Of a DNA stretch of 64,000 bases, positions 2,127-60,332 are shown piece by piece. Made by a program: the position numbers and the translations under genes. Source of the DNA: a virus. Lineage: Duplodnaviria > Caudoviricetes. The notes beneath the pieces were generated by a model. That model was not told the origin of the DNA, made no database searches, and was given only the letters and a program-made list of their open reading frames with translations. How positions within the stretch are numbered: the first letter of the stretch is position 1; every line of letters begins with the position of its first letter. The DNA is taken from positions 288,001-352,000 of the IMG/VR virus record IMGVR_UViG_3300009031_000221; one strand, given 5' to 3'.

Positions 2127-2153
2127 ACTTACTTCATGTGAATGCGGCGTAGA
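2127..2153 (+). promoter_or_regulatory. Bipartite promoter-like motif (ACTTACTT-N12-GCGTAGA)
   Basis: One of ten fixed-spacing copies; intergenic, upstream of PheRS. Confidence 0.75.
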
Positions 2154-2161
2154 TCCATCCC

Positions 2162-3208
2162 ATGAAGAACAACTGCACAGAACATATTTTAAGTCACATG
2201 CCACGGGCTAAACACCGTAGGCACAATCATCCTATCGAGATTGTCAAGCGTTTGGTGGCGGAACAATTCCCGGGATTCTTCCTGAGGGATACGTTCTCTC
2301 CTTTCGTTTCAGTCGTAGATTGTTTCGATCGTCTGCGGATTCCCGCAGACCACCCTTCTCGAAGTATGTCCGATACGTACTACTTCGATGATGAAACTGT
2401 TCTCCGTACACACATGACGGCGCACACTGTTCCGATGGCTGACACTCGTAAAGGGGAGGGTCTAGCATCTTTTCTCACCTGTGGCGAGGTCTACCGTCGG
2501 GACGAGATCGACCGGACACACTATCCTGTGTTCCATCAACTGGATGGCTTCTGCGTCACGCCCAATGCTGCCGAGGATCTCCTAGCACGATTGCTTGGTG
2601 TTGCCAAGGCTTTGTTCCCCAATGTCCCCGTTCGAGTCCTGCACGAAGGGGTAGATGCGGGGATCTACTTCCCGTTCACGACACAATCCATCGAGATTGA
2701 AGTGGAACTCAACGGTCAATGGGTTGAAATCCTGGGGGGTGGTGTCGTTCATCCTGACATCATGAAGGCCATCGGGCGCAAAGGTGAAGAGGCCTGGGCG
2801 TTCGGTATGGGGTTGGAACGAATCGCCATGGCCATCTGGGACATTCCAGATATTCGTCTGTTCTGGTCGATAGACTCGAGGTTCCTTGATCAGTTCAGCT
2901 ACGAATCAAGGGCACCATTCAAGCCGTTCTCGAATCATCCCGTATGCTACAAGGACATTGCCTTCTGGTATGACGGTGAAATCCAGGACAATGACCTGTA
3001 TGAGATTGTTCGGGGTATTGCCCCGGACATCATCGAACAGATCAAGCTGCTGGATACATTCACGCATCCGAAGACAGGGCGGAAGTCCAAGTGCTATCGG
3101 ATGGATTTCCGCGATCTCTACCGGACATTGACCAATATAGAAGTCAATGATATCAATGACAAGATTCGAGAGGCAGCGGCATTGACTTTGAATGTCGAAC
3201 TGCGGTAG
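2162..3208 (+). CDS. pheS: Monomeric (mitochondrial/organellar-type) phenylalanyl-tRNA synthetase
   Basis: Class II motif 2 YRRDEIDRTHYPVFHQ, motif 3 WAFGMGLERIAM..DIPDIRLFW, then ferredoxin-fold anticodon-binding domain (KDIAFW...HPKTG..S.CYR...RTLT..EVN). Confidence 0.92.
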   Translation: MKNNCTEHILSHMPRAKHRRHNHPIEIVKRLVAEQFPGFFLRDTFSPFVSVVDCFDRLRIPADHPSRSMSDTYYFDDETVLRTHMTAHTVPMADTRKGEGLASFLTCGEVYRRDEIDRTHYPVFHQLDGFCVTPNAAEDLLARLLGVAKALFPNVPVRVLHEGVDAGIYFPFTTQSIEIEVELNGQWVEILGGGVVHPDIMKAIGRKGEEAWAFGMGLERIAMAIWDIPDIRLFWSIDSRFLDQFSYESRAPFKPFSNHPVCYKDIAFWYDGEIQDNDLYEIVRGIAPDIIEQIKLLDTFTHPKTGRKSKCYRMDFRDLYRTLTNIEVNDINDKIREAAALTLNVELR

Positions 3209-3215
3209 CCCTTAG

Positions 3216-3242
3216 ACTTACTTCTGCATGATTGAGCGTAGA
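3216..3242 (+). promoter_or_regulatory. Bipartite promoter-like motif (ACTTACTT-N12-GCGTAGA)
   Basis: Exact copy between PheRS stop and HD gene. Confidence 0.75.
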
Positions 3243-3280
3243 TGATGTAGGACCTGCAATATGCGGGCGTATAGGAATCT

Positions 3281-3865
3281 ATGACCCAGTTCTCATTCAC
3301 ACTCTCGATCGCATCCCTTGCCCGAACCTTCGCCATCTGGGCGCATGGGGACCAGAAATATGGGGACTTGCCATACGTCCATCACTTGGACGAGGTCGTG
3401 GAGGTTCTCAAGGAGTACGGCTACACGGACGATGATTCGTTGGCGGCGGGCTACCTCCATGATGTGCTGGAGGACAGCAAGATTGCCCGCTACGATGACC
3501 TCGGCTTCGTGTCGCAGGAAGTTCGCTACGCCCTGATGTTTTGCAAGGATGCGGAGGGTCACAACCGCGTCACCCGCAAGGCCGCGACCTATGAGCGATG
3601 CCATCGGGATATCGGGCGGTGGTTGCTGAAGCCCCAGTGCCTGACCTTCGCCCAGGATCCTGATTCCATGGCGTACATCCCCCTTGCCATCCGTACGAAG
3701 GTCGCTGACCGCATCGCCAACGTCCGTAGCAGCAAGGGCACGAAGTCGAGCCTGTTCCACATGTACAAGAAGGAGCGGGACGCATTTCGCTTGGGCTTGT
3801 ACACTCCCGGCGTTTGTGACGCCATGTGGGTCGAATACGATCAACTCCTGGGGGCGCAGGGATGA
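3281..3865 (+). CDS. HD-domain protein, small alarmone hydrolase (SpoT/Mesh1)-like
   Basis: AH.DQKY...PY..HL..V, LHDVLED, KVADRIAN motifs. Confidence 0.8.
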   Translation: MTQFSFTLSIASLARTFAIWAHGDQKYGDLPYVHHLDEVVEVLKEYGYTDDDSLAAGYLHDVLEDSKIARYDDLGFVSQEVRYALMFCKDAEGHNRVTRKAATYERCHRDIGRWLLKPQCLTFAQDPDSMAYIPLAIRTKVADRIANVRSSKGTKSSLFHMYKKERDAFRLGLYTPGVCDAMWVEYDQLLGAQG

Positions 3866-4770
3866 ACGGCATTAACCCCAAGGACATCCCGTACCAGTTC
3901 TCCCAGGTAACAGGGGGACATGCGGAACATGTATCCAAAACGGTGGTGAATCCGGAAGCCCGCTTCCGGGCTCATCCCGTTGGGGCTGCCTACATCCACA
4001 GCTACTATGGCCCCTATGGTTCCAATGATCGCGATTCATTCCGATGGGATGACCACTGGAATCATGTTGACCCTAAGATCTTGCTTGCGGTCTTCACCAT
4101 GGAAGAGTGCTGCCGTCTTTGGACGGATTGCATCTTCATGTCCGACATGTCCAAGTACTGCGAAGATGAACACACGCTCCTGTGGAAAATCAACAATATC
4201 CACTGGCAGTTTGGGTGCCAGCGTAGCTGGAATCTCCTTGTGCGGAACTTGGATGCATTGAAGCGGCTGGACTTCGGCGTGCCGGGGTTTGACGTGCGAA
4301 TCACGCATCCGTGCTCCATCAACATGGTAGGCAGGGCTGCACATGGCCCCTACCTGTACTTGGATGGGGCGCTTGGATTGCTGTTGTACTACAAGGGGGA
4401 ACACGTCCTGACGGTTGGTTTCTCGGTGAATACCGATGGGGTCTACATCGCACAAGTACAACTCCGGCAGAAGAAGGGCAACCGTTTCATCTACAAGCTT
4501 CCCGATCATTACATGGACATGGTATTGGACATGTTCAGGCGTGCTTTCCATGAGGATGACCTGTGGCTCGTGGAAGGGAAAAGCGCTGCTGCCGCAGTGG
4601 TGCGATCCTACGGCAACGGCCCGCATAACGTCACGCCAGAAGTCGAACAACGTATCGTATCGTTGTACAATCGCCCGTTGAGTTCATTCAACAGGACAGA
4701 GCCCGCTTATCAGAGTGGGCGTAATTACACCCGGTTAGTCCCGGCCAAGACCCAAGCACTCGCCGCTTAG
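3862..4770 (+). CDS. Hypothetical protein, possibly DUF535/VirK-like in its C-terminal half
   Basis: Long ORF; ATG 3862 overlaps upstream TGA; LTVGFS...VYIAQVQ segment loosely resembles DUF535. Confidence 0.5.
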   Translation: MNGINPKDIPYQFSQVTGGHAEHVSKTVVNPEARFRAHPVGAAYIHSYYGPYGSNDRDSFRWDDHWNHVDPKILLAVFTMEECCRLWTDCIFMSDMSKYCEDEHTLLWKINNIHWQFGCQRSWNLLVRNLDALKRLDFGVPGFDVRITHPCSINMVGRAAHGPYLYLDGALGLLLYYKGEHVLTVGFSVNTDGVYIAQVQLRQKKGNRFIYKLPDHYMDMVLDMFRRAFHEDDLWLVEGKSAAAAVVRSYGNGPHNVTPEVEQRIVSLYNRPLSSFNRTEPAYQSGRNYTRLVPAKTQALAA

Positions 4771-4780
4771 GAGATTCGTC

Positions 4781-6105: not shown

Positions 6106-6130
6106 ACCTACTCTGGTCTATAGGGTCTCT

Positions 6131-6157
6131 ACTTACTTTTCCCACGGGATGCGTAGC
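6131..6157 (+). promoter_or_regulatory. Bipartite promoter-like motif (ACTTACTT-N12-GCGTAGC)
   Basis: Upstream of rIIA. Confidence 0.7.
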
Positions 6158-6194
6158 TAGGATGTATGACCAATGATCCTAAAGGAAGTGCCGG

Positions 6195-8291
6195 ATGCAA
6201 GTTGCCCTAAGCAATCGTGATGTCAAATCAAGTGGTGTAGAAGCTCGTGGTACCTTTGGCATTAGCCACAAGGCACAAGCCCACATCATGACCATCTTGC
6301 GGGATACATTATATTCCGACAAGGTTTTGGCAGTCCTTCGTGAGTATGCTTCGAATGCCTGGGATGCACACAAGCAGTCCGGTAAGGGCCACATTCCTAT
6401 CGAAGTCATGATGCCTACAGCAATGAGCCCGAACTTGGTCATTCGTGACTTTGGTATGGGCATGTCGGAAGACACGGTATTCAACGTGTTCACGCAATAC
6501 GGAGACAGCACTAAGCGCGAGACGAATGACGCTGTGGGCATGATGGGCATCGGTAGCAAGTCCGGCTTCGCCTACTCCGATTCCTTCACGGTGACCTCGT
6601 GGCATGACGGAACCAAGAAAGTCTACATCGCTGTCCTGGATGATTCCGATGTCGGCGAGATCAACAAGATGCACGAGGAACCCTGCGACTTCGATGAAGT
6701 CGGTGTGGAGATCCAGATCGCCGTCCGCCCGGCGGACATCTATGAGTTTCAACGCAAGGCGATCAAGTTGTTCCCGTACTTCTACCCAACCCCCAAGATC
6801 AACTTGGAGATGCCCAAGTACAACCGGAACGTGACAACCCACGGATTCTTTTCCATCAACCGGGAAGAAGATGGGTGGATTGCCGTTCAGGGGTGCATCC
6901 CTTACCGTATCAATATCGCTCAGGTTCAGCCCGAGTTGGAAGCTGCCGGAATTTGGGACGCCCTGTCCCGTACCACCGGCGGATTGTTCTTCCCTATCGG
7001 CGGCGTTCAGGTCAGCGCTTCCCGTGAGGAACTCAAGTACAGCACTTCAACCAAGAAGGCAATCGTTTCCAAATTCACGGAAATGATTGAGTCCTACATC
7101 GCAGACGTGCTTGAAGTCCTGAACAAGGATGATCTTTCCGATTGGGAAAAGCGGCAGAAGGCTTGCTTCATGGAACATACCATGAAGATCGGTATCCCTG
7201 CCAAGTACAAGGATTGGGCACGCTATCAGGTGAACCTCTGGGGTCAAGGGACGGAGCATAAGGAACCGCAAACATTCATTCTTCTTCGTGGCAACTCCCA
7301 AACTAACAGTATCGGTGTGGATGTTCGGACTCGATTCGTCATCAAGGATGATCCTCGTTCCATGGAAGGGTTTCGGTTGGAACCCTCCGATGTAGTAGTT
7401 CGTTCTTTGCGGGATGCGCCTATTGATGCTGTGGTCGATGAATTGGAAACCTACATCGCTTTGAATCACCTGACGGGCATTCGGATTGCCCGAATCTCGG
7501 ATATGAATTGGAACCAGCCTTACCGATCACAGGCAATGCAAAGGAAGCAACAAGGTCCCGTCAACCAGAAGTACTTGGTCAAGAGCTTCCAGCTAAAGGA
7601 TGACACGCTCAACCGTTCCACGCTGTCTGAAAACTGGGATATTGTAACCCGGGAACCAACGGATGAGGACGTGTTTGTTATCATTGAGGCTTTCAAGGTT
7701 CCGGACGTGTCTGACTTTTACCGGCAAATGGTGAAAGATCGGGAAGCTGCCAAGGCCTTGGGCTTCACCATGCCCACGGTCTACGGCTATAAATCGACGG
7801 AGAAGACCCCCATCAAGGTCAAGGATTGCAAGGGCACGGAATACACGAAGTGGCGTGAGAAGTTCATCATGGACATGATGACTCCGAAGCGGATTGAAGT
7901 CCTTCAGCAACTCCGGTGGTCTACGTTGTTCCACGATATGCACGCCTGGGAGATTGCAGACCGCGGGGATCTTCCTGTGATTACTGCGGATCTGCGGAAG
8001 AACCTGGGAGAGCATCCTGTGACTCTCATGTTCGAGAAGCACGCGAAGTCCAAGGTGCTTCTCGCGGGATTGCCCCACGGCATTTCCACACACCTGTTGC
8101 ATCTGTTGGCAGGCGTGACATTAGAAGTCCCTTTTGACGGGCGTAATGCCTACAAGGCTGTGACAGACAACTATCCCCTCATCGCAGTAAGCGGCGGGGT
8201 TGCCCTCCTCTGCAAGGAACATCGTTTGCACTGGATGAATTACATCAAGCTGGTTGATCAGGTAGCTGCAATCGCTGCCCATAATGTGTAG
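6195..8291 (+). CDS. rIIA: rIIA-like protein (N-terminal GHKL ATPase)
   Basis: LYSDKVLAVLREYASNAWDAH, IRDFG.GMS, STKR..ND..G..GIGSKS.FAYSDSFTV; adjacent to rIIB. Confidence 0.88.
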   Translation: MQVALSNRDVKSSGVEARGTFGISHKAQAHIMTILRDTLYSDKVLAVLREYASNAWDAHKQSGKGHIPIEVMMPTAMSPNLVIRDFGMGMSEDTVFNVFTQYGDSTKRETNDAVGMMGIGSKSGFAYSDSFTVTSWHDGTKKVYIAVLDDSDVGEINKMHEEPCDFDEVGVEIQIAVRPADIYEFQRKAIKLFPYFYPTPKINLEMPKYNRNVTTHGFFSINREEDGWIAVQGCIPYRINIAQVQPELEAAGIWDALSRTTGGLFFPIGGVQVSASREELKYSTSTKKAIVSKFTEMIESYIADVLEVLNKDDLSDWEKRQKACFMEHTMKIGIPAKYKDWARYQVNLWGQGTEHKEPQTFILLRGNSQTNSIGVDVRTRFVIKDDPRSMEGFRLEPSDVVVRSLRDAPIDAVVDELETYIALNHLTGIRIARISDMNWNQPYRSQAMQRKQQGPVNQKYLVKSFQLKDDTLNRSTLSENWDIVTREPTDEDVFVIIEAFKVPDVSDFYRQMVKDREAAKALGFTMPTVYGYKSTEKTPIKVKDCKGTEYTKWREKFIMDMMTPKRIEVLQQLRWSTLFHDMHAWEIADRGDLPVITADLRKNLGEHPVTLMFEKHAKSKVLLAGLPHGISTHLLHLLAGVTLEVPFDGRNAYKAVTDNYPLIAVSGGVALLCKEHRLHWMNYIKLVDQVAAIAAHNV

Positions 8292-8327
8292 AACATAACG
8301 GACCCCTATTACAACTCAGAGGACACC

Positions 8328-9281: not shown

Positions 9282-9608
9282 ATGGCATCTAAATGGGACG
9301 GCAAAATTCCATTTGATGCAAATGGACGCCTATTGCCATACATTGACATGTACCATTGCAAAAACAACCTTGTGACTTGGAAAGACAACTTCAAGTTTGG
9401 TGCCGCTCTGCATGTGTCACATGCTTCAAGGGGTATGTATGCTGTCAATATCATCATGAAGGATGATGCAGACATACCGTATCCTTTGTCCCTTGCGGAT
9501 TTCATGAAGGTGGTGCCCAAGATGACGTTAGGGCGCATTGTAGCTCAGTGGACGTACGCCAAACGGGGTCAAAACTTCTTCTGCACTCCCGTCGAAGGAA
9601 CCTACTAA
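9282..9608 (+). CDS. Hypothetical protein
   Basis: Coupled to rIIB. Confidence 0.65.
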   Translation: MASKWDGKIPFDANGRLLPYIDMYHCKNNLVTWKDNFKFGAALHVSHASRGMYAVNIIMKDDADIPYPLSLADFMKVVPKMTLGRIVAQWTYAKRGQNFFCTPVEGTY

Positions 9609-9610: not shown

Positions 9611-9913
9611 ATGCCATGCTGCGAATTTGCCCCCGAGAAGGATGATCTCCCAGGATTGATCCGGCATATGAAGGGTTCGCACCCGGAAATGACCGAAGAA
9701 ATCCAGACTTTGTCCGAAGAAATGGCTGGTTACGTGCGGGAAAGGTGGAAGGATACCTTTGGAGGCCCCCTGCAAGTCGACTTCGTGTGCATGAACCCTG
9801 CGAAGATGGAACTTCTCATGGCCACGATGGAGATCAGCGACCTTGTGCCCATGAGCTACGGTATGATGCCCGCTATTGGCCCGAATCGTTTCCGAGTTAT
9901 GATCGAGATCTAA
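9611..9913 (+). CDS. Hypothetical protein
   Basis: ATG 9611 follows the upstream stop. Confidence 0.6.
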   Translation: MPCCEFAPEKDDLPGLIRHMKGSHPEMTEEIQTLSEEMAGYVRERWKDTFGGPLQVDFVCMNPAKMELLMATMEISDLVPMSYGMMPAIGPNRFRVMIEI

Positions 9914-9924: not shown

Positions 9925-10617
9925 ATGAAGGCATATTGGTTCAGCAGTAATGGGGAAGCGAAGTATGGCACCGTGAAGGACTACCTTATAGGCCAAACCT
10001 ACAAGGTAGAAGGGGAAATCAAGCCTTGTTCCCACGGGCTTCATGCCTCCGTATATCCCTTCGATGCCTTGGGATATGCAGGACGTGGGCGTACATTGGA
10101 TATCGTGGAGCTTGGCGGAACCGTTGTCTCGGGGAACCCAGACAAACATGCCGCAAGTGAACGTACACATGTTCAACGTATTGATGCTACTGATATGCTC
10201 CAGGAGTTCGCCCGGTGGTGTGCATTGAGTGTGGCTTACCAATGGCCCGAAATGCCTGCAATCATCCGGCAATACCTTGAAACCGGAGATCGGGAGCTTC
10301 GTAATGAAGCTGCCACTTGTCACAATACCATTATGGATTCATGTGATTACGGCACGCAATCGTCATTGCGGGCTTCTGATGCCACCTACTACGCCTTCTA
10401 TGATATCGGTCTGGCGGCTCTTGGGGCGGAATATGCAGCCCAATCTGCCTTTGACGGGGAGGTTGAGTTCTACAGGAATGCACACGACGTAGATGATCCC
10501 GATTATGACTCCAATTTCCGGGACAAGATCCGGCAAAAGCAAAGGGACAAGTTTCAGGAACTCGCGGACAAGTACTTCGCACAGGCATTGACATATGCAA
10601 ACCCCGATCAAGTGTAA
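9925..10617 (+). CDS. MKAYWFS-family paralog (DUF7666-like N-domain plus helical C-domain)
   Basis: C..GLHAS..P.DAL.Y, VELGG, EFARWCAL, YLETGD; paralogs at 21347, 22018, 44204, 45301. Confidence 0.75.
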   Translation: MKAYWFSSNGEAKYGTVKDYLIGQTYKVEGEIKPCSHGLHASVYPFDALGYAGRGRTLDIVELGGTVVSGNPDKHAASERTHVQRIDATDMLQEFARWCALSVAYQWPEMPAIIRQYLETGDRELRNEAATCHNTIMDSCDYGTQSSLRASDATYYAFYDIGLAALGAEYAAQSAFDGEVEFYRNAHDVDDPDYDSNFRDKIRQKQRDKFQELADKYFAQALTYANPDQV

Positions 10618-10921
10618 TGAATGCCAACAGATCCTGTTGTCCGTATGGCCTCTAGGGGATCCACGGGGGATCATATCTATGACCGGGTTCCAAGAGGATA
10701 ACGGCCCGCATGACCCAAATGTCCGCCAGGCACCAAATGTCCCTGGGCCTATCCGTTCCACAGCAATTCATGTTTTCGGTCATGAAGATTACGTTAGGAT
10801 CCTCGTCCGATGCGACAAATGCAGGTACGGTGAAGGCAGCCTAGACATCCCACGCCCAATTCGGGCAAAAACCAGTCCAAAGAGGCCCATTTGGGCATTT
10901 TGGCGCAAGGATCCCAAATGA
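10595..10921 (+). CDS. Hypothetical protein with CxxC pairs
   Basis: CNEC and CDKC; coupled. Confidence 0.55.
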   Translation: MQTPIKCNECQQILLSVWPLGDPRGIISMTGFQEDNGPHDPNVRQAPNVPGPIRSTAIHVFGHEDYVRILVRCDKCRYGEGSLDIPRPIRAKTSPKRPIWAFWRKDPK

Positions 10922-11259
10922 TGATCGTTGACTTGACCAAATACCTCGAGGAAGCCATCCAAGGTGGCATCCGTACCGCCAAAATGGCAGAAGTTGCGGC
11001 AAATGATGCCGTTGCTTCCGCAGGAATCGACCCGGAAGCCCTTGTACACGCCGCCCAGGCTGCACAAGCCGCTACCGGGGCGCATGCCATCGTAGCGAAC
11101 ATGATCGCATCCATCCTGCCCTCACCGGATGAGGGCGGGGATTGCCTGGATTGCGACTGCGATGACTGCAATGACCATGACAAGTGTCCTGGAGATGACT
11201 GTGAAGGGTGCTGTGGATGCGACTCCGATTGCCCATGCGGCGGAAGGACGATCAACTAA
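10918..11259 (+). CDS. Hypothetical protein with Cys/Asp-rich metallothionein-like tail
   Basis: 11 Cys in a 32-aa C-terminal stretch; ATGA-coupled start. Confidence 0.65.
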   Translation: MMIVDLTKYLEEAIQGGIRTAKMAEVAANDAVASAGIDPEALVHAAQAAQAATGAHAIVANMIASILPSPDEGGDCLDCDCDDCNDHDKCPGDDCEGCCGCDSDCPCGGRTIN

Positions 11260-11261
11260 CC

Positions 11262-11429
11262 ATGTATGAATACAAAGTCGTTGAATGTACGGGAGCGGGA
11301 AACGTGGCATCTGCATTGAATGCCCATGCCCTATTGGGTTGGCGTCTTGTCAGCACTTATCAGCCTGAACATCGGGAATCTGGCGGCGCCATCCCAGTGT
11401 GTCTCATTTTGGAACGCCCGAAGGTCTAG
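11262..11429 (+). CDS. DUF4177-like small protein
   Basis: YEYKVV...LN.....GWRLVS....ILERP. Confidence 0.6.
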   Translation: MYEYKVVECTGAGNVASALNAHALLGWRLVSTYQPEHRESGGAIPVCLILERPKV

Positions 11430-18916: not shown

Positions 18917-19195
18917 AGGTAGGCCCCCATAGACAATTTCCAGATTCTGTTGTTCGCGACTAGTTTCATTTTGTGTGGGGGTTTATTTGGCGCCCCGACA
19001 TATCCTTGGACCATCTCGCGGAACCCTGTGATTTGACAAGAACAGGGTTCAGGCGTGTCTGGTGGAAGTAGTACACTACTCGGAGAAGTAAGTCAAGGAA
19101 AGGGATGGAAAGGGGGTAAGAAGGGGGATATTTGTCTGGGTGATTTCTGGACGTAGTCTGTATAGGTGTTGTAGGGGGTAATGTGATATGACCCT

Positions 19196-21317: not shown

Positions 21318-21346
21318 GGGGAGTCCTTGTATGTAGATCGATCTAT

Positions 21347-23522: not shown

Positions 23523-23550
23523 TATCCTTATGAAGGTATCCCCAGGACGA

Positions 23551-23577
23551 TCTACGCAGGTTGGGCTAGAAGTAAGC
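23551..23577 (-). promoter_or_regulatory. Bipartite promoter-like motif (GCTTACTT-N12-GCGTAGA)
   Basis: Plus strand reads TCTACGC-N12-AAGTAAGC. Confidence 0.75.
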
Positions 23578-23584
23578 CCCGCGA

Positions 23585-24043: not shown

Positions 24044-24083
24044 GTAGTTCGTGTGACAGGGTTTAGTCCATGTCTACACGTCA

Positions 24084-24110
24084 TCTACGCGATGGTTCCG
24101 GTAAGTAAGT
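24084..24110 (-). promoter_or_regulatory. Bipartite promoter-like motif (ACTTACTT-N12-GCGTAGA)
   Basis: Plus strand TCTACGC-N12-AAGTAAGT. Confidence 0.75.
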
Positions 24111-24322
24111 CATCCAAACAGAACGTAGTAGACGCTAGCGATAACGGTAAGCCCTACCACGAATCCTAGGAGCCTATAGCGTGTAGGGGAATAGGATACC
24201 TTGGTGGCTGGTGCGTCTGCCAAAGCTTCGTCCAACTGGGCATCGATCTCAGCGCTTGTCATGACCTTCATGCGACGTGTCATAGTGCCCTCGTGTCCTG
24301 TTCGGTTACTTCTGCCAGCCAA
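24110..24322 (-). CDS. Small membrane protein
   Basis: C-terminal hydrophobic helix. Confidence 0.55.
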   Translation of the reverse strand: MAGRSNRTGHEGTMTRRMKVMTSAEIDAQLDEALADAPATKVSYSPTRYRLLGFVVGLTVIASVYYVLFG

Positions 24323-27065: not shown

Positions 27066-27089
27066 GTACCATAAACCTCTTCAGATTGA

Positions 27090-27116
27090 TCTACGCATAC
27101 ACGGGTTGAAGTAAGC
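27090..27116 (-). promoter_or_regulatory. Bipartite promoter-like motif (GCTTACTT-N12-GCGTAGA)
   Basis: Plus strand TCTACGC-N12-AAGTAAGC. Confidence 0.75.
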
Positions 27117-27189
27117 CTATGCCCCTAGTTCGTTTATACACATTACCTCTGTAGAGACCCTCCTATATTGTAGGGCGCGGGAGGTTATT

Positions 27190-43171: not shown

Positions 43172-43186
43172 CTATCCTCCACAGGT

Positions 43187-43213
43187 ACTACGCACTTCGA
43201 TCCAAAAGTTAGT
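43187..43213 (-). promoter_or_regulatory. Near-consensus promoter-like motif (ACTAACTT-N12-GCGTAGT)
   Basis: Same spacing, one mismatch in the upstream box, intergenic. Confidence 0.6.
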
Positions 43214-43694
43214 CTCCGTCGTCATCCTCCGGGACAAGAAGATAGCCACCTTTGGCAGCCAGCGGCTTGACATAGGTAGCGATTGTGGTCAGGACAACCG
43301 AAGTGAACCCTGCAATGTCATTCGGATCATTGGTATCGACGTGAAATGCTGTAGATTGTCGCGTTGGCGAAGAAGAGGACTCACACGTATGCAAACATAC
43401 GGTAATGTCCTTTGAGGACAGGGCGATGGGCACGACGATTTCAACAAGTAATTTGTAGGCTGGAATTGGGGTAATCCCATCAGGCATCCATATAAAGGGC
43501 TTGCCGAACCTCCCGAGAATCTTGACACGGGCATGAATCCCGGTGCCATGCGATAGGACTTCCCATTCGTCCCGGTAATTAATGTGCCTTAGAGGGGTTA
43601 GGAGGGCGGATGCGGACGTTGCTGCCTTGGACATAGCCCCGCCTGAGGCGGAGGCTACGGAGGAACACAGGCGAACGTATTCGGGGGCATTCAT
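43209..43694 (-). CDS. DxxDxxG-array member
   Basis: DPNDIAGFTSVV. Confidence 0.7.
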   Translation of the reverse strand: MNAPEYVRLCSSVASASGGAMSKAATSASALLTPLRHINYRDEWEVLSHGTGIHARVKILGRFGKPFIWMPDGITPIPAYKLLVEIVVPIALSSKDITVCLHTCESSSSPTRQSTAFHVDTNDPNDIAGFTSVVLTTIATYVKPLAAKGGYLLVPEDDDGD

Positions 43695-44200: not shown

Positions 44201-44203
44201 GAT

Positions 44204-46202: not shown

Positions 46203-46222
46203 GGCAGTTCTCCTACCATGTA

Positions 46223-46249
46223 TCTACGCTCGACGGGACAGAAGTAAGC
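46223..46249 (-). promoter_or_regulatory. Bipartite promoter-like motif (GCTTACTT-N12-GCGTAGA)
   Basis: Plus strand TCTACGC-N12-AAGTAAGC. Confidence 0.75.
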
Positions 46250-46259
46250 CAAGCCCCGT

Positions 46260-47026: not shown

Positions 47027-47028
47027 AG

Positions 47029-47610
47029 CTATTTGTCCTTCTTCTTGTCCTTCTTGGACCCAAGGGCTGGGGATTCCACATAGTGGAAGGGGCCAGCTAC
47101 GGAAGCGTTGAGGCACGCAGATGCTTCCAAGGCCATTTCCAACCGGCGTTGCGGGGACATGGACATCTGTCCGGTCGTATGCAGGCTTCCTTTCGCAGAC
47201 AAATCTCCGCCACCGATTGCGGCGAAGTTGCAATGGTAGGAACTAACGTGGAAATCCTCATCAATCTCAAATAATTGACCAGCAACGCCAACGAGGATTT
47301 GCCCGCCTTCAGCCCTACCGTTTTCCGTTGTGCCCCATTTGTTCCCGATCAGGCAATTCATCAAGCTATTTACGAACTTGGTACACATGAACCGATGCAG
47401 TTCGCTAGGATCATCGGGTGGATCCATCGGATCAAAGGAGTATTGCAGGATTTGCCCCATGCGGAAGGAACTCGTGAATCCCATCACATAGGAACCGTGG
47501 GTGAATACCTTCGGTTCCCGGATGATGTGCAAGTCATATTCCGCTGTGCCGGCGCTATCTCCGCCCAAGTAGACGGTTTTACCGTCCGTGATACCTACGA
47601 TGCAAGTCAT
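47029..47610 (-). CDS. HslV/proteasome-beta-like Ntn (Thr) protease
   Basis: M-T-CIVG, GGDS, KVF, G..SS.R.GQ, AIG.G...A.G.L, ALEA....ASV.GPF. Confidence 0.8.
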   Translation of the reverse strand: MTCIVGITDGKTVYLGGDSAGTAEYDLHIIREPKVFTHGSYVMGFTSSFRMGQILQYSFDPMDPPDDPSELHRFMCTKFVNSLMNCLIGNKWGTTENGRAEGGQILVGVAGQLFEIDEDFHVSSYHCNFAAIGGGDLSAKGSLHTTGQMSMSPQRRLEMALEASACLNASVAGPFHYVESPALGSKKDKKKDK

Positions 47611-47816
47611 TGATTACCTCCTGGTTTCTCTGGCATGATGGACAGGCGGCTGACCTCATCTCGACTGAAACCCAAGTCCTTGAGGCGTTGTGCCGCACGG
47701 TTGTTGAGTTCCGCATATCTACCCGCATCGCTGGCCTTATCAGGCTGCACTATGTCGTTCAACAACCTACGCAGTTCTTCCATCGGGGTTTCGTCATCGT
47801 CCCTGAAGTGTCCCAT
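47607..47816 (-). CDS. Hypothetical protein
   Basis: ATGA coupling. Confidence 0.55.
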   Translation of the reverse strand: MGHFRDDDETPMEELRRLLNDIVQPDKASDAGRYAELNNRAAQRLKDLGFSRDEVSRLSIMPEKPGGNQ

Positions 47817-48080
47817 CTATTTGCACCATAGGGTGGTAGGACCACCCTGATAAGAACCTATCCAAACCAAGCGGCATGTGACAGGTTTGCCGTTTTCCGT
47901 TGTGTGGTAATCGAACTCCACAGCAGCGTTTGGCACGCTAGTGCCTCCAGGAATATCGGGGATATGCCGAATCGTGTGATGGAGTTCTACCACGGCTTGA
48001 TCCGGCTCTGCTGGACAAGTGGTGTTGCCCGTACATGCCATCAACAGGCATCCTACTAGGAGGATCTTAGGGGTATACAT
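47817..48080 (-). CDS. Putative lipoprotein
   Basis: MYTPK-hydrophobic-LMAC lipobox; C-terminal CR.VW.G...GG.TTLWC. Confidence 0.55.
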   Translation of the reverse strand: MYTPKILLVGCLLMACTGNTTCPAEPDQAVVELHHTIRHIPDIPGGTSVPNAAVEFDYHTTENGKPVTCRLVWIGSYQGGPTTLWCK

Positions 48081-48273
48081 ACCAACCCTCCTCCGAGACG
48101 TTGAATCCCAGGGCTTCGAGTGCCTTCTCATCCTCGGGGGTCAGGCCTTGAGGGGCATCCTCAGGGCAAATGTGGATGATGTCATGATCCGCCCCGCCGA
48201 GGGATGTATCCAGACCTTCGGGGAGGTACTTGGCCAGGATATCCAGGCCGGCGGCAAAGTTCTTGAAAGTCAT
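48067..48273 (-). CDS. Hypothetical protein, paralog of 49122
   Basis: MTF.N...GL.ILAKY.PEG...LGF.....GWY. Confidence 0.65.
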   Translation of the reverse strand: MTFKNFAAGLDILAKYLPEGLDTSLGGADHDIIHICPEDAPQGLTPEDEKALEALGFNVSEEGWYVYP

Positions 48274-48285
48274 GTCATTGCTCCT

Positions 48286-48576
48286 TTAGTGTGCGTCCCA
48301 TTTAGCGGTGAATCCGATTTTCGTCCAAATCTCATGTTCCCTCTTCAAATTGGTGCGGGAATGACGCAGGCATCCCTTGAACCGCTTGTTCACCCAGGCC
48401 AGGTACCGGTCACGGATCACTTCATAGGAGTCCGTTACGGGGGCGTCGAAGCCATCCTTCTCCACGTCAATACCCAAGATTTCGTAGGTAGCCACCGTCG
48501 GCGTTTGGTACAACCGGGTGATTTCGTGCTTGGCGCCCAAGGGGTGCTCGTAGTATAGGTAGACATTCATTGACAT
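48286..48576 (-). CDS. Hypothetical protein
   Basis: Start MSMNV coupled to upstream stop. Confidence 0.55.
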   Translation of the reverse strand: MSMNVYLYYEHPLGAKHEITRLYQTPTVATYEILGIDVEKDGFDAPVTDSYEVIRDRYLAWVNKRFKGCLRHSRTNLKREHEIWTKIGFTAKWDAH

Positions 48577-48857
48577 TATTCCGCATCCTCCTTCGCGTAC
48601 CATTCCGCCCAAGGCGTCCCGGGTAGGGGCCATTTATCATCCAGGATGTCGAGGCACGTTCGATGGACAGATGGCGCCGGGCAAGTACGTCCAGAGTCTG
48701 TCCAGTCATATGCCAAGCATTTCAGATGTTTGGACTTCGGATGCTCCTTCTGGGCTGCACGAATCACCTCAAGCATCTGATCCGCTGGGCAATGCCCGTC
48801 ATCATCATGCTCAACGGGGAGATCCGCAAGTTGCTTGATCCATTCCTTTTCGGTCAT
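48576..48857 (-). CDS. Hypothetical protein
   Basis: ATGA coupling. Confidence 0.55.
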   Translation of the reverse strand: MTEKEWIKQLADLPVEHDDDGHCPADQMLEVIRAAQKEHPKSKHLKCLAYDWTDSGRTCPAPSVHRTCLDILDDKWPLPGTPWAEWYAKEDAE

Positions 48858-49174
48858 GGTTCACCTTTCCAATCTTTGCGTTCGGCGTGGAACGCACGGC
48901 CGCAGTTGTTACACAAGGGCAATTTGGAGTCGGCGTCCGACCAATTCGCGTAGCGATTCTTGGTGTCAGGCCATTGGACGATGCCACAGAACGAAGAAGC
49001 AAAGCCCGACACGGCTCCATTCGTATATTCGATGAACAAATGTGCGACATTGCCATTCCGCGTCTTGCGGACGGTTACGGCTTCTAACGGGAACGCCCCA
49101 TCAGGCCAATGTGGTTCACGACTAGTCGCCATTGATGTACCATCCCGTTGTGTTCCAGGAGAAGCCCAAAACAT
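48854..49174 (-). CDS. Hypothetical protein with Zn-binding motif
   Basis: AHL...SFCG...LC.NC. Confidence 0.55.
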   Translation of the reverse strand: MFWASPGTQRDGTSMATSREPHWPDGAFPLEAVTVRKTRNGNVAHLFIEYTNGAVSGFASSFCGIVQWPDTKNRYANWSDADSKLPLCNNCGRAFHAERKDWKGEP

Positions 49175-49352
49175 TCAAGAGATTCTTATCCAAATTCGTG
49201 ATCCCGGGGTGTCCTTTCCTGCGTCCAATGTCGGATGGGGCCACGTAGATGACTTTGTCATTGTATGCCAAGCCCATAAACTTGGTCTTCATCCCTTCGG
49301 GGTCGTACTTGGCGAGGATGGCGAGGCCTTTGGTCAGGTTGTCAAATGTCAT
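49122..49352 (-). CDS. Hypothetical protein, paralog of 48067
   Basis: MTFDNLTKGLAILAKYDPEG. Confidence 0.65.
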   Translation of the reverse strand: MTFDNLTKGLAILAKYDPEGMKTKFMGLAYNDKVIYVAPSDIGRRKGHPGITNLDKNLLNVLGFSWNTTGWYINGD

Positions 49353-49951
49353 GGCGTAATCTCCTTTCGTTTCCTTTTGTGCCACTGTGCTACGGGGCCG
49401 AACCGTTCCTCGAGATCCGCGATGCACTTCTTGGCACGGGTCACTTGTTCTTCGGTGTCCCAAGCAATGACCATGTACAGGGTTTCCCGAATCCCGGCAA
49501 GCCACTCAGGCCTTACGTTATCCGGCACCGTGCAACACGGCGAATGGTGCGTGCTAATGGCATGGAAATGAAGGATTGGCTCCTTCGGTGGGTACATCTT
49601 GTGGCGTAGGGCATTCTCGCGTTGTTTCGGTGTGCGACTAATGGCACGGGAACGACGATCCTGGAGGATGCGTTCGATTCCCTGGGGCGTCCGCTTCCTG
49701 TCAGGACAGAACCGAAGGGGGTTGAGTTTGTCCTCCCATCGGAAATGGACATATCGTTCCCATTTATTCAGCCTTTTGAACTCTTCTTCGCGTTGTGCTG
49801 TGTTCAGTCCATCCGTTCGTAGCCCGTCTTTCCAATCGAACTCAGTCCCAAACGCAAGGAACAAACGGTCTAGCACGTCCGCCCTGCAGTGATACAGGGT
49901 CGGCCAGTACTTGACCATGTTGATCATGGTGCGTGTGAGGCTATTGGGCAT
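49349..49951 (-). CDS. Hypothetical protein
   Basis: 200-aa ORF in coupled run. Confidence 0.6.
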   Translation of the reverse strand: MPNSLTRTMINMVKYWPTLYHCRADVLDRLFLAFGTEFDWKDGLRTDGLNTAQREEEFKRLNKWERYVHFRWEDKLNPLRFCPDRKRTPQGIERILQDRRSRAISRTPKQRENALRHKMYPPKEPILHFHAISTHHSPCCTVPDNVRPEWLAGIRETLYMVIAWDTEEQVTRAKKCIADLEERFGPVAQWHKRKRKEITP

Positions 49952-50128
49952 TTACTTCCCTACCTTGAATGTCCTGAATCGGTTGGCCTCAACAGCGGCA
50001 TGCGCTTGGGGGTTACGGAAGGCATACCATGTCATCCCTAGCCACGTGTAGAACTCCTTCCGAATGGTGTTCTCCGGGGACGGCTCCTTGTTGATATCCT
50101 GGGCATACCAAAGGTGGTGCTTCTTCAT
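49952..50128 (-). CDS. Small hypothetical protein
   Basis: Start MKKHH, ATGA-coupled. Confidence 0.5.
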   Translation of the reverse strand: MKKHHLWYAQDINKEPSPENTIRKEFYTWLGMTWYAFRNPQAHAAVEANRFRTFKVGK

Positions 50129-50556
50129 GGATTTTCGCTCCTGGGGAGGGTCTGAAGTGCCCCCAACTCGACACCGCGACCGGCTGCGATGTCCGCAAGG
50201 TTCACAACTGCCGTAGCACAACCATAGCGGAAAGCATCTCCATCTTGGATCTTGACGTACGCCGGCCCCATAGTTGTGGTCACGCCGCCATCTTTCAGGC
50301 GCACTTTGTCCCCCACCAGGACATTGGCATTCCAAGTATTCACATGGGTCTGTGCCGTATCGATCTGCTTGGCAATGTCCGCTGTGGATGGGTGCCGGAA
50401 TCCGGCACGTCGGCATGCGAGTCCCGCCAAGACATCATCCGCATAGCTCATGGCTCCGTAGGCATTACGGTCACCCCGACCAACCAACGCTGCCTCAACC
50501 ATGCGGAGCCAGATGACTTCATCACTTTGGGAGAACCCTGTCATAGCCGACCTCAA
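50125..50556 (-). CDS. Hypothetical protein
   Basis: Downstream of a promoter motif. Confidence 0.6.
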   Translation of the reverse strand: MRSAMTGFSQSDEVIWLRMVEAALVGRGDRNAYGAMSYADDVLAGLACRRAGFRHPSTADIAKQIDTAQTHVNTWNANVLVGDKVRLKDGGVTTTMGPAYVKIQDGDAFRYGCATAVVNLADIAAGRGVELGALQTLPRSENP

Positions 50557-50580
50557 TCACCCTGTCTACGGGCTGGGCTG

Positions 50581-50607
50581 TCTACGCGGATTGGGCTAGA
50601 AGTAAGT
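50581..50607 (-). promoter_or_regulatory. Bipartite promoter-like motif (ACTTACTT-N12-GCGTAGA)
   Basis: Plus strand TCTACGC-N12-AAGTAAGT; overlaps end of upstream ORF. Confidence 0.75.
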
Positions 50608-50953
50608 CCTGCTTGAGAACGACTTCCGCCGCATCCGAGGCTGCATCGAATGACGGGAATTCCTTAGGAGCATTGCCTATCGGGTTGCCGTTCATCAAGT
50701 ACTTTCGCGGGCGGGACGGGATGCACATGTATTGCTGATCGAAGCATGATTCAGTCGGGAAACTCACGATGAATGTGTCATCCAACGGTTCCACGAATGC
50801 GGCAGCCCTCTGTGTGTTGTGCGAATACCTGACATAGTAACGATTACCCTCTGTTGATGGCACAGGGATCCATAAAGGTTTGTCCTTATGAGGTCTTTCC
50901 ACATAGGCTACCATCAACAGAAACAGGGCAATGGCTTCTACGTCCGTGTTCAT
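50582..50953 (-). CDS. Hypothetical protein
   Basis: ATGA coupling. Confidence 0.6.
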   Translation of the reverse strand: MNTDVEAIALFLLMVAYVERPHKDKPLWIPVPSTEGNRYYVRYSHNTQRAAAFVEPLDDTFIVSFPTESCFDQQYMCIPSRPRKYLMNGNPIGNAPKEFPSFDAASDAAEVVLKQDLLLAQSA

Positions 50954-51390
50954 ACGGTAAACACTTCCACCGTGCCGTGGTCAACAACAACCACACAGAT
51001 GGCGTCAGGGCCTGCATCCAGCATCTTCTGCTTCGTATCGGGGTCAATGTGACCTACGATGGTCGTCATGCCTTCACGGGCTGCCAAGCCTCGAGCGAAA
51101 GGAACTTGCCCTGCATCTCGCACCGCCTGCCAATCGAATCCAGGCATGAGGGCGTCCGCGATCTCGGCTCCGTAAGGGGCATCGACATGAATCAGGACGA
51201 TGCACACTTCGCTGGGGGAATTGCCCAGATCCTTGATGCGCTGAATGAAGTGCTGCACACGATCGAGTTGGATGTCCATCGTGTTGAAACAGTTGTGCTT
51301 GGCTACTGCCTTGAATAAGGCAAGAGCATCCGGGTCATCCAGATACAGTTCGCCAGTCTCTGGGTGTTTACGTACAACGGCCTGGGTCAT
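50950..51390 (-). CDS. Hypothetical protein
   Basis: GGAGG RBS, downstream of a promoter motif. Confidence 0.7.
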   Translation of the reverse strand: MTQAVVRKHPETGELYLDDPDALALFKAVAKHNCFNTMDIQLDRVQHFIQRIKDLGNSPSEVCIVLIHVDAPYGAEIADALMPGFDWQAVRDAGQVPFARGLAAREGMTTIVGHIDPDTKQKMLDAGPDAICVVVVDHGTVEVFTV

Positions 51391-51407
51391 GGTGTCCTCC
51401 AGGTTGT

Positions 51408-51434
51408 TATACGCACTAGGGGCTAGAAGTAAGC
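51408..51434 (-). promoter_or_regulatory. Bipartite promoter-like motif (GCTTACTT-N12-GCGTATA)
   Basis: Abuts the stop of the last array gene. Confidence 0.7.
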
Positions 51435-51680
51435 CTATCGTAGCTCATGATCATATTCATAGATCACGCCCGGGTCAGAATACCGCAGGACGCTGAATTC
51501 ATCCCGCATTATCCAGGTGTTCAATGCATCTACCTGGAGTAGAGAATGATCTGTCCACACTTCACCCTCATTGGATGGCAAGTAGATCCCCCGAAGATCC
51601 TTTCGGTTAGGTTCTGACCTGGGTTCCATGGTGCCTGTGGAAGTATCGAAGGACTTGTTGGTGTCATACCATTGCGTCAT
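51435..51680 (-). CDS. WxDxxK-array member
   Basis: QWYDTNKSF, EGEV, MRD. Confidence 0.7.
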   Translation of the reverse strand: MTQWYDTNKSFDTSTGTMEPRSEPNRKDLRGIYLPSNEGEVWTDHSLLQVDALNTWIMRDEFSVLRYSDPGVIYEYDHELR

Positions 51681-51684
51681 AGGG

Positions 51685-51933
51685 TCACCATTTAAGTTTG
51701 TCATCCCAAGGAAGCAAATGGCGGATTGAACTGTCCAGATTATGATAGGTATCCCGAATGCGATGAATCTTCTGATCCGATGCTAGTAACGAGAAATCCT
51801 CGAACACACGCCCTTCGCCCTGAGGAATAGGGTCGGGGTCATTGGATTCTATAGGGTAGCCCGCCTCCCCGAATTCCTTGGTGGTGTCATACCAGCATTG
51901 CATGCTAATCGCCCTCATACAGGACAATGACAT
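51685..51933 (-). CDS. WxDxxK-array member
   Basis: CWYDTTKEF, EGRVF, IRD. Confidence 0.7.
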   Translation of the reverse strand: MSLSCMRAISMQCWYDTTKEFGEAGYPIESNDPDPIPQGEGRVFEDFSLLASDQKIHRIRDTYHNLDSSIRHLLPWDDKLKW

Positions 51934-52117
51934 CCTTATCCAAGACTACATAGGGATCTCGAATGGATCTAACGTGTATTTCGGAATTCGTTATGGAGTA
52001 ATCCGGGAATACACGTCCTTCTGCGGTATCGAATCTATTATCTTCTGCCCCGGCATTCACAGGGTCTAGAGGGCTCGTGGATCCGAATCTTTTGAGGGTG
52101 TCATACCAGCTATTCAT
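51905..52117 (-). CDS. WxDxxK-array member
   Basis: SWYDTLKRF, EGRVFP, IRD. Confidence 0.7.
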   Translation of the reverse strand: MNSWYDTLKRFGSTSPLDPVNAGAEDNRFDTAEGRVFPDYSITNSEIHVRSIRDPYVVLDKDVIVLYEGD

Positions 52118-58999: not shown

Positions 59000-59012
59000 T
59001 GGGGCATTCTCC

Positions 59013-59705
59013 TTAGATGGTCATAGCTTGTTGTGCGGTAGCACATGGGTTGAATTCGACATTGGTACGCAGGAACACTTCACTTCGCAGGTCGGTATGG
59101 CAGGGATGCATGAGTTCTACAATTACATTGGTGGCGGCACACCTCGCATCTACATCTACATCATTGGCATAGTAATACGCGGCATACGCCGCAATATTAC
59201 ATGGATGTGCCCAACCTGAGATGTCCTTTTTCTTTTGACCTTCGGCTGATTCCACTGTCCGATCTTCACCGGAGAGCCACTTGTTCGCCCAATCCTTCCA
59301 ATCAACGTCATCCGCTACTTGCAATGCCGTGAGGATGCCAAATCGGACGAATTGTTCCGTTGTGGGGTAAGCGAAGTCTGTGATTTCCTTTGTGAGAGTC
59401 AATTGGGTTGACCCGCCCTTCAAGGGCTCCCTGATGATAGTGCCGTCCGCTTCTGCCTCAAACATCCGTAGGCTGGATGGATTGAAGTTGCCGTGTACCC
59501 CATTCATGAATAGAGCGAGGGCAGGATCCTCGTACCAGTGTAGGAATGATGCAGAACAAAGCCCCTGGCATATGTTACTGTGCCTATGGGCACTAGTTTC
59601 ATACGTTTCCCCGACAAACCATTGAAACCCTCTGAAGGTTTGCATGTTCTTATCAGTTAGCTTGTAAACCTTCATCACTTCTCCGAAAAGTCTCGTTCGC
59701 ACCAT
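59013..59705 (-). CDS. Distant DUF7666-like protein
   Basis: YKLTD...T...FQW..G, LCS..FLHWY..P.LA, W..WA.KWLSGEDR; likely start MKVYK. Confidence 0.6.
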   Translation of the reverse strand: MVRTRLFGEVMKVYKLTDKNMQTFRGFQWFVGETYETSAHRHSNICQGLCSASFLHWYEDPALALFMNGVHGNFNPSSLRMFEAEADGTIIREPLKGGSTQLTLTKEITDFAYPTTEQFVRFGILTALQVADDVDWKDWANKWLSGEDRTVESAEGQKKKDISGWAHPCNIAAYAAYYYANDVDVDARCAATNVIVELMHPCHTDLRSEVFLRTNVEFNPCATAQQAMTI

Positions 59706-60046
59706 AGGGTCGTCAGTCCGCCATCAGAATTGCCACACCATAGCATCCGGCAAAGCTGCTTGAGCCCGTTCCTGGACGTGCGATGGTCAAACTCCATGCA
59801 CTGCGTAGGGCCAGTGTTGTTGAAGATCTGGATGGCAAAATCGTAAGGGTGAATGGAATCCAGGGAGCGGACATCTTTCGGGGGCTCTGGTACTGCTGGG
59901 GCTTGTACGGGAGCTTGTACGGGGGATTGTACGGCAGCCGGAGCAACCCCCTTGTTCCCGAATAGAATCACCATCACGGCAGCCGTGCCTAATATTGCAG
60001 TGCAGAATGCTAGCAAACCTTTCATTTTCCCGCCCTCTTCAAGCAT
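59675..60046 (-). CDS. Membrane-anchored protein with Pro/Ala linker; C-terminal motif shared with 47817
   Basis: TM helix, VQAP repeats, CRMLWCG...GGLTTLWC. Confidence 0.6.
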   Translation of the reverse strand: MLEEGGKMKGLLAFCTAILGTAAVMVILFGNKGVAPAAVQSPVQAPVQAPAVPEPPKDVRSLDSIHPYDFAIQIFNNTGPTQCMEFDHRTSRNGLKQLCRMLWCGNSDGGLTTLWCERDFSEK

Positions 60047-60285
60047 CCAGGGCAGATCCAGCCCTCAGCTTTGTTGTACTTCCAACCACGATTGACGGCA
60101 TCCGCCTTGATCTTTGGCATGGTCACTTTGCCATCGCAGTCCAATCGATCCCAATCCCCGCATTGGCCGCAGAAGACCTCATAGGCAATACGGATAACGC
60201 CCAGGATAGGGCCTGGGGTGTACCCCTCGCACTTGAACGTGGATTCAGGAAGTTTCAACATGTCCGCAACGCTGATCTCTGTCAT
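60022..60285 (-). CDS. Small Zn-finger protein
   Basis: FCGQC...WICPGC. Confidence 0.6.
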   Translation of the reverse strand: MTEISVADMLKLPESTFKCEGYTPGPILGVIRIAYEVFCGQCGDWDRLDCDGKVTMPKIKADAVNRGWKYNKAEGWICPGCLKRAGK

Positions 60286-60305
60286 AGCGGTATCCTCCAG
60301 GTGGA

Positions 60306-60332
60306 TCTACGCATACCAGTCTAGAAGTAAGC
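60306..60332 (-). promoter_or_regulatory. Bipartite promoter-like motif (GCTTACTT-N12-GCGTAGA)
   Basis: Plus strand TCTACGC-N12-AAGTAAGC; heads the run leading into BCS1 and the array. Confidence 0.75.

Follow-up and report, generated by a model that had tools for sequence, protein, structure and literature searches.

Which factor reads a two-box motif that recurs with invariant spacing before genes on both strands of a very large phage genome, and what does the motif do there? The question is raised by a 64,000-nt stretch (hereafter the window) that covers bases 288,001-352,000 of the virus record IMGVR_UViG_3300009031_000221, a member of the Caudoviricetes. The whole IMG/VR record is 536,053 bp long, is rated complete by CheckV and comes from groundwater metagenomes. 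The motif, RCTTACTT-N12-GCGTA, had been described from the letters of the window alone, and the original prediction took it for a promoter whose reader was either a sigma-like protein encoded at 17990-18916 or a sigma factor of the host. Genome-wide statistics, profile searches, a structure model and a comparison with related loci now indicate that the motif is probably the promoter of non-late (early or middle) genes and that it is most likely read by the phage sigma-like protein, here called P0001.

A rigid two-box motif repeated about 130 times

A pattern search of the window returns exactly 10 matches, and none in 100 dinucleotide-preserving shuffles. They start at 2127, 3216 and 6131 on the plus strand and at 23553, 24086, 27092, 46225, 50583, 51410 and 60308 on the minus strand. 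All ten copies of the original prediction, each with a 12-nt spacer, are thereby recovered; its minus-strand starts were 2 nt too low because the conserved box continues as GCGTAGAT. A mismatch-tolerant search adds a near copy at 43189 (one mismatch, ACTAACTT), and a weak copy at 60681-60708 combines an intact downstream box GCGTAGAT with a degenerate upstream box. Both had been pointed out before, at 43187 and 60682, and both are real. Another weak candidate copy lies at 21345-21372.

The ten copies are a slice of a much larger set, as revealed by the genome-wide motif scan that had been proposed beforehand. Indeed, the 536,053 bp hold 119 exact copies, or about 130 copies in all. The spacer measures 12 nt in 119 of 119 exact copies, and variants with spacers of 8-11 or 13-17 nt yield zero copies genome-wide. 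Alignment of the copies extends the conserved footprint beyond what was earlier described, to G-R-CTTACTT-YY-N10-GCGTAGAT, a 29-nt element with an information content of about 30 bits. CGTA is invariant among the exact copies, and a weaker conserved pyrimidine-purine pair occupies motif positions 33/34. With a cut-off of at least 8 bits, a weight-matrix scan finds 132 sites genome-wide and 0 in shuffled sequence, so that degenerate copies must be few.

This motif, class 1 in what follows, has no equally sharp companion: gapped and ungapped enumeration of the genome after masking of class 1 disclosed no second sharp promoter class and returned only the arms of transfer RNAs (tRNAs) and a five-copy palindrome, CATTGAC...GTCAATG. 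The palindrome (CATTGAC-N9/11-GTCAATG) is intragenic in all five copies, lying in coding sequence at genome positions 71775, 135200, 205386, 291127 (window 3127) and 363886.

Placement at gene boundaries points to a non-late promoter class

Placement was judged on a rough gene call made for this analysis (667 genes, about 86% coding). Despite this coding density, 120 of the 132 sites (about 90%) are intergenic, which extends to the whole genome the earlier claim that copies sit at gene boundaries. Copies are co-oriented with the gene or tRNA array that follows. From the end of GCGTAGAT to the co-oriented start codon the commonest distance is 30-49 nt, a range that takes in 70 of the 132 sites. 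For the window copies it is about 10-42 nt when measured after GCGTA, in agreement with the 8-41 nt originally given. On the other side, a co-oriented reading frame ends within 30 nt of the copy in 85 of 130 sites, and in 30 sites the upstream stop codon overlaps or touches the motif. Copies placed right behind a preceding stop codon would thus drive long co-directional arrays, some from the head of the array and others from within it. These arrays comprise accessory genes, ORFans and tRNA arrays, and the copies with no open reading frame (ORF) nearby stand before tRNA arrays (the phage has 68 tRNA genes). In addition, six divergent pairs, with 12-15 bp between their members, are arranged back to back at the very points where the genes change strand. 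Hardly any copies occur in genome regions 38-107 kb and 133-207 kb, in which the genes for the baseplate wedge, the head maturation protease and the portal are located.

Co-orientation, pairs at strand switches and absence from the virion blocks together suggest a non-late promoter class. Judged by these sequence properties, the recurring pair of boxes is a genuine phage-specific promoter, from which transcription would proceed. Motif statistics, placement, the fold and family of the sigma protein, and conservation and co-variation in relatives are established observations, from which we infer binding, start site and timing.

A predicted start site and a shared leader

Several features coincide around motif position 34. 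Of 98 leaders that were folded, 83 have a predicted hairpin whose first base lies at positions 34-37, an ATG stands at position 34 in two genes, and several Shine-Dalgarno sequences begin at positions 36-40. In the related locus L052 the ATG lies exactly 12 nt past the C of CGT in 10 of 13 sites, as would be expected of leaderless transcripts, and position 34 of the motif in this phage is likewise 12 nt past the C of CGT. Taken together with the pyrimidine-purine pair at 33/34, these features argue for a start of transcription near motif position 34. In L052 (IMGVR_UViG_3300023174_000096), a GC-rich relative, nearly every small gene between 12,200 and 19,200 has its ATG 9 nt past the TCCGT of the promoter peculiar to that lineage, implying a 7-kb run of leaderless transcripts.

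In the phage studied here, most leaders contain a short GC-rich hairpin, behind which come an AAGGAAC ribosome-binding site and the start codon. The stability of the hairpins is only modestly above that of shuffled sequence (-7.3 vs -5.9 kcal/mol). They share the type GGGCAC-loop-GCCC, with loops that often read RAYGAY, and occur genome-wide, for example at window positions 6159-6194 and 3244-3280. Such a hairpin may stabilise the 5' end or provide the transcripts with a common means of translational control.

A divergent sigma factor as the candidate reader

P0001 is composed of an N-terminal extension (residues about 1-110), a sigma2-like domain (about 110-196), a beta-hairpin linker and a sigma4-like helix-turn-helix domain (about 228-308). 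Among the ORFs of the genome it is the only one that aligns across sigma2-sigma4, covering positions 17-161 of the 165 of TIGR02937 (E 2.8e-6). More than 600 homologs were found, some of them on contigs of 400-620 kb (up to 518-618 kb), and a few bear the Joint Genome Institute name sigma-24 family. The family alignment displays the same three parts, including a conserved N-terminal extension, and its sigma2 region contains the conserved blocks DPEDVLQEVYKGLL and SSFGHYVHMVxxCILSNYHRK. This sigma family of huge phages is widespread and apparently uncharacterised, and no description of it or of its promoters was found in the literature.

The family profile matches the sigma-H structure 3mzy_A (E 3e-5). 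The AlphaFold model of P0001 (predicted local distance difference test score, pLDDT, 82) has extracytoplasmic function (ECF) sigma factors as all of its best full-length Foldseek matches. In particular, model residues 110-195 superpose on region 2 of E. coli sigmaE with -10 DNA (4lup_A, Z 7.9, 2.9 A, 79 residues), and the sigma2 domain also matches RpoE (5uxx_A, Z 7.7). Residues 228-308 superpose on region 4 of sigma-H (3mzy, Z 8.7, 2.8 A over 73 residues), of SigD (3vfz, Z 8.1, 1.7 A over 61 residues) and of sigmaE with -35 DNA (2h27_D, Z 6.8). The two domains of the model are joined by a linker some 35 residues long that contains a beta-hairpin (200-211), and neither region 1.1 nor sigma3 is present. 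Genome searches for a phage beta/beta' polymerase gave no match; those for a T7-type RNA polymerase gave none either, an uninformative result since the search control was silent too. P0001 is most likely the reader of the motif and its best candidate, with core-polymerase binding and initiation as its predicted functions. Placement statistics, fold, family conservation and co-variation all favour the earlier proposal that the protein encoded at 17990-18916 reads the motif.

The region upstream of the sigma gene contains no class-1 copy. About 150 nt before the start codon it carries TTGACT-N17-TACTAC, in which TTGAC is invariant on alignment with the two closest relatives, one of which (L079) has a similar TACAAC. 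The half-site of the motif that had been noted at 19086 does exist as a sequence (GACTTACTT, minus strand 19094-19086), and is better read as the -35 box of this conserved element, a putative host-type promoter. A host-type promoter before the sigma gene would fit a transcriptional cascade. Closer to the gene, the leader block AAACCCACACACAAAACGAAGC is nearly invariant in three relatives despite diverged surrounding DNA (window about 18955-18980, minus strand; L079 about 9395-9420; L080 about 9870-9895); the block may be an operator or a site through which translation of sigma is controlled.

In the cascade that we propose, the sigma gene would be transcribed by host RNA polymerase with the host primary sigma from the TTGAC-type promoter, and the two-domain ECF-like phage sigma would then join the host core polymerase. 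The sigma4 helix-turn-helix would read the upstream box G-R-CTTAC at about -34 to -28 and the sigma2 domain the downstream box GCGTAGAT at about -13 to -6, with transcription starting at motif position 34, some 12 nt past the C of CGT. In most cases the transcript would then open with the short GC-rich hairpin, ahead of the AAGGAAC ribosome-binding site.

The motif follows the phage sigma in some relatives

Synteny is kept in relatives, in which the sigma gene adjoins the rIIA-rIIB block. The closest relative, L079 (24.6-kb contig), has a sigma protein 56% identical to P0001 and a GC content of 61% vs 52% here. Its recognition helix, SKATxSRAL, is the same as in P0001, and its motif, GGCTTA[C/G]-N12-GCGTAGAT, occurs in four copies in 20 kb, one of them an exact copy before rIIA at the position orthologous to the window copy at 6131. 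A class-1 copy at 11,270 in L079 faces about 800 nt in which no gene was called (10,486-11,297, minus strand) and which run in the direction of the 3' end of sigma; the RNA made from this stretch may be non-coding or antisense.

When 5-mer/gap/5-mer patterns were enumerated without bias across 57 related loci, three other lineages proved to have motifs of their own, built on the same two-box plan (Table 1). In the full record of L030, GGTTCC-N15-CCGTA is present in 26 copies vs 0 for a reversed-pattern control, and in that of L052 the counts for GGTTAC-N15-TCCGT are 21 vs 0. The recognition helices of the L030 and L050 sigmas differ from that of P0001 (the sigma ORF of L052 was not extracted). 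Hence the same helix goes with the same motif in L079 and another helix with another motif in L030 and L050, such that the promoter stays constant or changes with the phage sigma. No clear motif emerged from the roughly 20 kb examined of each of L034 and L047, and CGT-anchored motif discovery in 50 related loci was too noisy, with only L052 and L030 standing out. Across IMG/VR the exact motif gave only single matches at chance level, the one contig with two matches being an inverted duplicate. Locus L026 contains a repeat unit of a different kind, TACTTACGGAAGC-N9-CACTTTTAACGGGCAC, in four copies that partly form facing pairs (2,900-3,930 and 19,440-19,480); in its upstream half the unit is similar to the CTTAC box described here.

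Weighing the assignment

Several observations weigh against the reading of the motif as a non-late promoter served by P0001. The protein scores below family cut-offs, with 25.2 bits for TIGR02937 (curated cut-off 42.9), 17.9 bits for Sigma70_ECF (cut-off 21.1) and E-values of 0.036 and 0.13 for Pfam Sigma70_r2 and r4, which makes it a divergent relative of sigma factors and not a routine family member; the structural Z-scores of its model (7-9) are middling for helical domains. The boxes also depart from ECF usage. The AAC triplet is nearly invariant in ECF -35 boxes (PMC7083833), whereas the upstream box G-R-CTTACTT lacks it and, unlike GGAAC, shares only the final AC. The gap from this AC to CGT is 15 nt here vs about 16-17 in ECF promoters; in the related lineages L030 and L052 it measures 16 and 17. 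Of about 50 related loci, no more than 3-4 showed a motif clearly, and L080 has no clear motif copies in 21 kb even though its sigma4 helix is similar. A sigma70 consensus scanner, built on the E. coli consensus, misses TTGACT-N17-TACTAC. Finally, start site and timing are predictions from sequence: window positions 43000-52000 are represented in four DNA sequencing runs of one groundwater study and in no RNA run.

A promoter could also be served by another phage factor, either a second sigma-like protein or an activator that, in the style of T4 MotA/AsiA, gives the host primary sigma a new target. Several further ORFs do have weak matches to sigma region 2 or region 4, T4-like rIIA/rIIB genes are present in the genome, and the upstream box contains GCTT, as the T4 MotA box presumably does. 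No match to AsiA or MotA (PF09010, PF09114) was obtained in the genome at E <= 1, a weak test as the control genomes included no T4-like phage. Two proteins were considered as candidates. A 259-aa ORF at genome 365.6-366.3 kb was rejected as primary reader, having only a weak region 2 match and no homolog among 5.8 billion proteins; moreover, it lies within a co-directional array headed by a class-1 copy and would therefore be made after the regulon is already on. The other, a 209-aa protein at about 162 kb, has no sigma2 domain. It lies inside the virion-gene block (genome about 161,900-162,300, minus strand, locus L003), has two tandem region-4-like helix-turn-helix domains (E 2.5e-8 and 1.7e-3) and is a candidate regulator of late genes. 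As only P0001 spans sigma2-sigma4, is conserved and tracks the motif in relatives, another phage reader is unlikely.

The original prediction also allowed for a host-encoded ECF sigma exploited by the phage. The CGTA-type -10 box and fixed spacing do resemble bacterial ECF promoters, such as the GGAAC-N16-CGTT of EcfG (PMC7083833). A search of one genome per species for 185,579 species (GTDB) produced 12 single matches to the 17-base version GACTTACTT-N12-GCGTAGAT, never two in one stretch, and neither blastn nor tblastx relates the 12 loci to the phage. The motif is instead kept, along with the phage sigma and the same helix, between genomes that differ by 9 points in GC content, and is altered where the helix differs. 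As a rule, ECF sigmas are kept in an inactive state and at low levels, and would therefore serve about 130 promoters poorly. With a motif that travels with the phage sigma and is present in at most one copy per bacterial genome searched, a host reader is disfavoured, and we consider it highly improbable.

P0001 thus remains the preferred reader, and a last question is whether the copies are promoters at all. They could chiefly be recombination joints or cassette borders, an idea raised in the original prediction, or a signal at the RNA level. In line with recombination, copies abut the preceding stop codon, mostly precede ORFans and are followed by a GC-rich hairpin. Identical 12-nt spacers are also in excess (11 pairs vs 0.005 expected, one spacer occurring 5 times), which suggests copying or gene conversion between promoter copies. 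However, blastn of the flanks detects no homology between copies with identical spacers, only overlaps of neighbouring windows and short similarities in 5' untranslated regions, so that no larger mobile unit is apparent. The divergent pairs, 12-15 bp apart, leave no room for an upstream promoter and argue against a purely RNA-level signal. Since strict orientation, fixed spacing, two boxes and co-variation with sigma are properties of promoters, it is very hard to sustain that recombination or RNA signalling is the chief role of the copies. The cassette idea thus gains from the spacer excess and loses from the non-homologous flanks; as an additional role of promoter copies, recombination is plausible but tentative.

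Copies and neighbouring genes in the window

The genes behind the window copies encode a PheRS-alpha-like protein, an HD hydrolase, rIIA and eight small ORFans (Table 1). Directly downstream of the sigma gene, at 16778-17746 on the minus strand, lies a LAGLIDADG homing endonuclease gene. It is missing from the syntenic regions of L079 and L080 and therefore looks like a recent selfish insertion. Two plus-strand genes of the window have no class-1 promoter: a virion structural protein gene (28053-29255) and a 343-aa ORF resembling the terminase large subunit (30783-31814). The latter matches only the middle of terminase profiles, and the terminase gene may be split or interrupted.

Table 1. Class-1 copies, the proposed sigma gene with its upstream promoter (window positions), and motifs of related lineages
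Feature	Position	Strand	Basis
Class-1 copy before PheRS-alpha-like gene (2162-3208)	2126..2154	+	pattern and weight-matrix scan
Class-1 copy before HD phosphohydrolase-like gene (3281-3865)	3215..3243	+	pattern search
Class-1 copy before rIIA (6195-8291)	6130..6158	+	exact copy at orthologous position in L079
Proposed motif reader: ECF-like sigma factor gene, 308 aa, P0001	17990..18916	-	profile, family, model
Proposed host-type early promoter of sigma gene, TTGACT-N17-TACTAC	19068..19096	-	TTGAC invariant in three relatives
Class-1 copy before 89-aa ORFan (23253-23522), heading minus-strand array	23550..23578	-	
Class-1 copy before 152-aa ORFan (23585-24043)	24083..24111	-	
Class-1 copy before small ORFs (26859-27065 / 26467-26907)	27089..27117	-	
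Near copy (ACTAACTT...GCGTAGTA, 18 bits) before 158-aa ORFan (42695-43171)	43186..43214	-	
Class-1 copy before 73-aa ORFan (45981-46202)	46222..46250	-	
Class-1 copy before ~140-aa ORFan (50125-50556)	50580..50608	-	
Class-1 copy (-10 box GCGTATAA) before 146-aa ORFan (50950-51390)	51407..51435	-	
Class-1 copy before 87-aa ORF (60022-60285)	60305..60333	-	
Weak copy, GCGTAGAT intact, upstream box degenerate (10.8 bits)	60681..60709	-	weight-matrix scan
L030 lineage motif, GGTTCC-N15-CCGTAwAG			enumeration
L052 lineage motif, GGTTAC-N15-TCCGTGGTG			enumeration
L050 lineage motif, GGTTAGTT-N14-CGGTACTAGG			enumeration

Significance

At the sequence level, the motif maps the transcription organisation of a 536-kb phage that apparently has no RNA polymerase of its own. 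About 130 transcription units can be delimited, those of tRNA and small-RNA genes included, which allows better annotation of a genome made mostly of ORFans. As cognate promoters can be read from each genome, the related phages also offer a natural set of sigma/promoter pairs, of use for studying the evolution of specificity and as orthogonal parts for synthetic biology. A more speculative and rather doubtful extension is that the sigma family, with more than 600 members, has diversified with its promoters into many orthogonal pairs and that the near-identical units of promoter, hairpin and ribosome-binding site double as portable joints for the copying and exchange of accessory genes. If this were true, half-megabase phages would possess a self-contained system of transcription and gene shuffling, and could operate and reshape hundreds of genes without recourse to host promoters.

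Comparison with known systems

A phage sigma with its own promoters is a textbook concept, which is found here on an unusually large and uniform scale. What is new is the identification of the sigma gene with structural support, the evidence from relatives, the deduced start site and the test of the cassette idea. A classical example is gp28 of the Bacillus phage SPO1, a phage sigma that is made early from promoters of host type, displaces the host sigma from the host core polymerase, reads phage-specific -35/-10 boxes of fixed spacing and switches on the next class of genes. The likeness lies in the proposed early sigma under a host-type promoter and in phage boxes at fixed spacing; the differences are the ECF-like lineage of P0001, its 110-aa N-terminal extension, other boxes and about 130 near-identical copies, the case here being made from sequence evidence.

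In the 77-kb podovirus phiEco32, early genes are transcribed with host sigma70 and later genes with a phage sigma on the host core polymerase; the promoters of this sigma, gp36, have a single element, AATGTA, centred at -11.5, with no upstream box, and need the cofactor gp79 (PMC12276001). Both gp36 and P0001 are akin to small two-domain sigmas, whereas P0001 would read two strictly conserved boxes and has no known cofactor. The bacterial ECF sigmas of group 4 resemble P0001 in joining sigma2 to sigma4, and their promoters resemble class 1 in being bipartite and rigid, with CGT in the -10 box and AC at the end of the upstream box. P0001 differs from them in being virus-encoded, in its extra N-terminal domain and in its position under the family cut-offs, and no anti-sigma was identified.

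Promoter(early)-stem-loop elements (PeSLs) of T4-type phages join sigma70-type early promoters to GC-rich terminator stem-loops and mediate gene shuffling (PMC2839356, PMC4122927). They partly resemble the present system in that many near-identical promoters, combined with a GC-rich stem-loop, precede ORFans in variable regions, and the short identical stretches could likewise serve homologous recombination. Here, however, the boxes are CTTACTT and GCGTAGAT and not TTGACA/TATAAT, and the hairpin is downstream, at the 5' end of the transcript, whereas the terminator stem-loop of a PeSL is on the upstream side. Moreover, recombination has been demonstrated for PeSLs, whereas in this genome it is hinted at only by the excess of identical spacers. 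A similar setting is that of the group 2 jumbo phages without RNA polymerase, for which minimal single-helix-turn-helix and RpoD-like sigmas have been catalogued, with no promoters given (Iyer et al. 2021, PMC7824862). These too are large T4-related phages that have sigma factors and rIIB, lack a polymerase of their own and presumably recruit that of the host; the family described here differs in being ECF-like and in having a cognate promoter that can be read directly from the genome.

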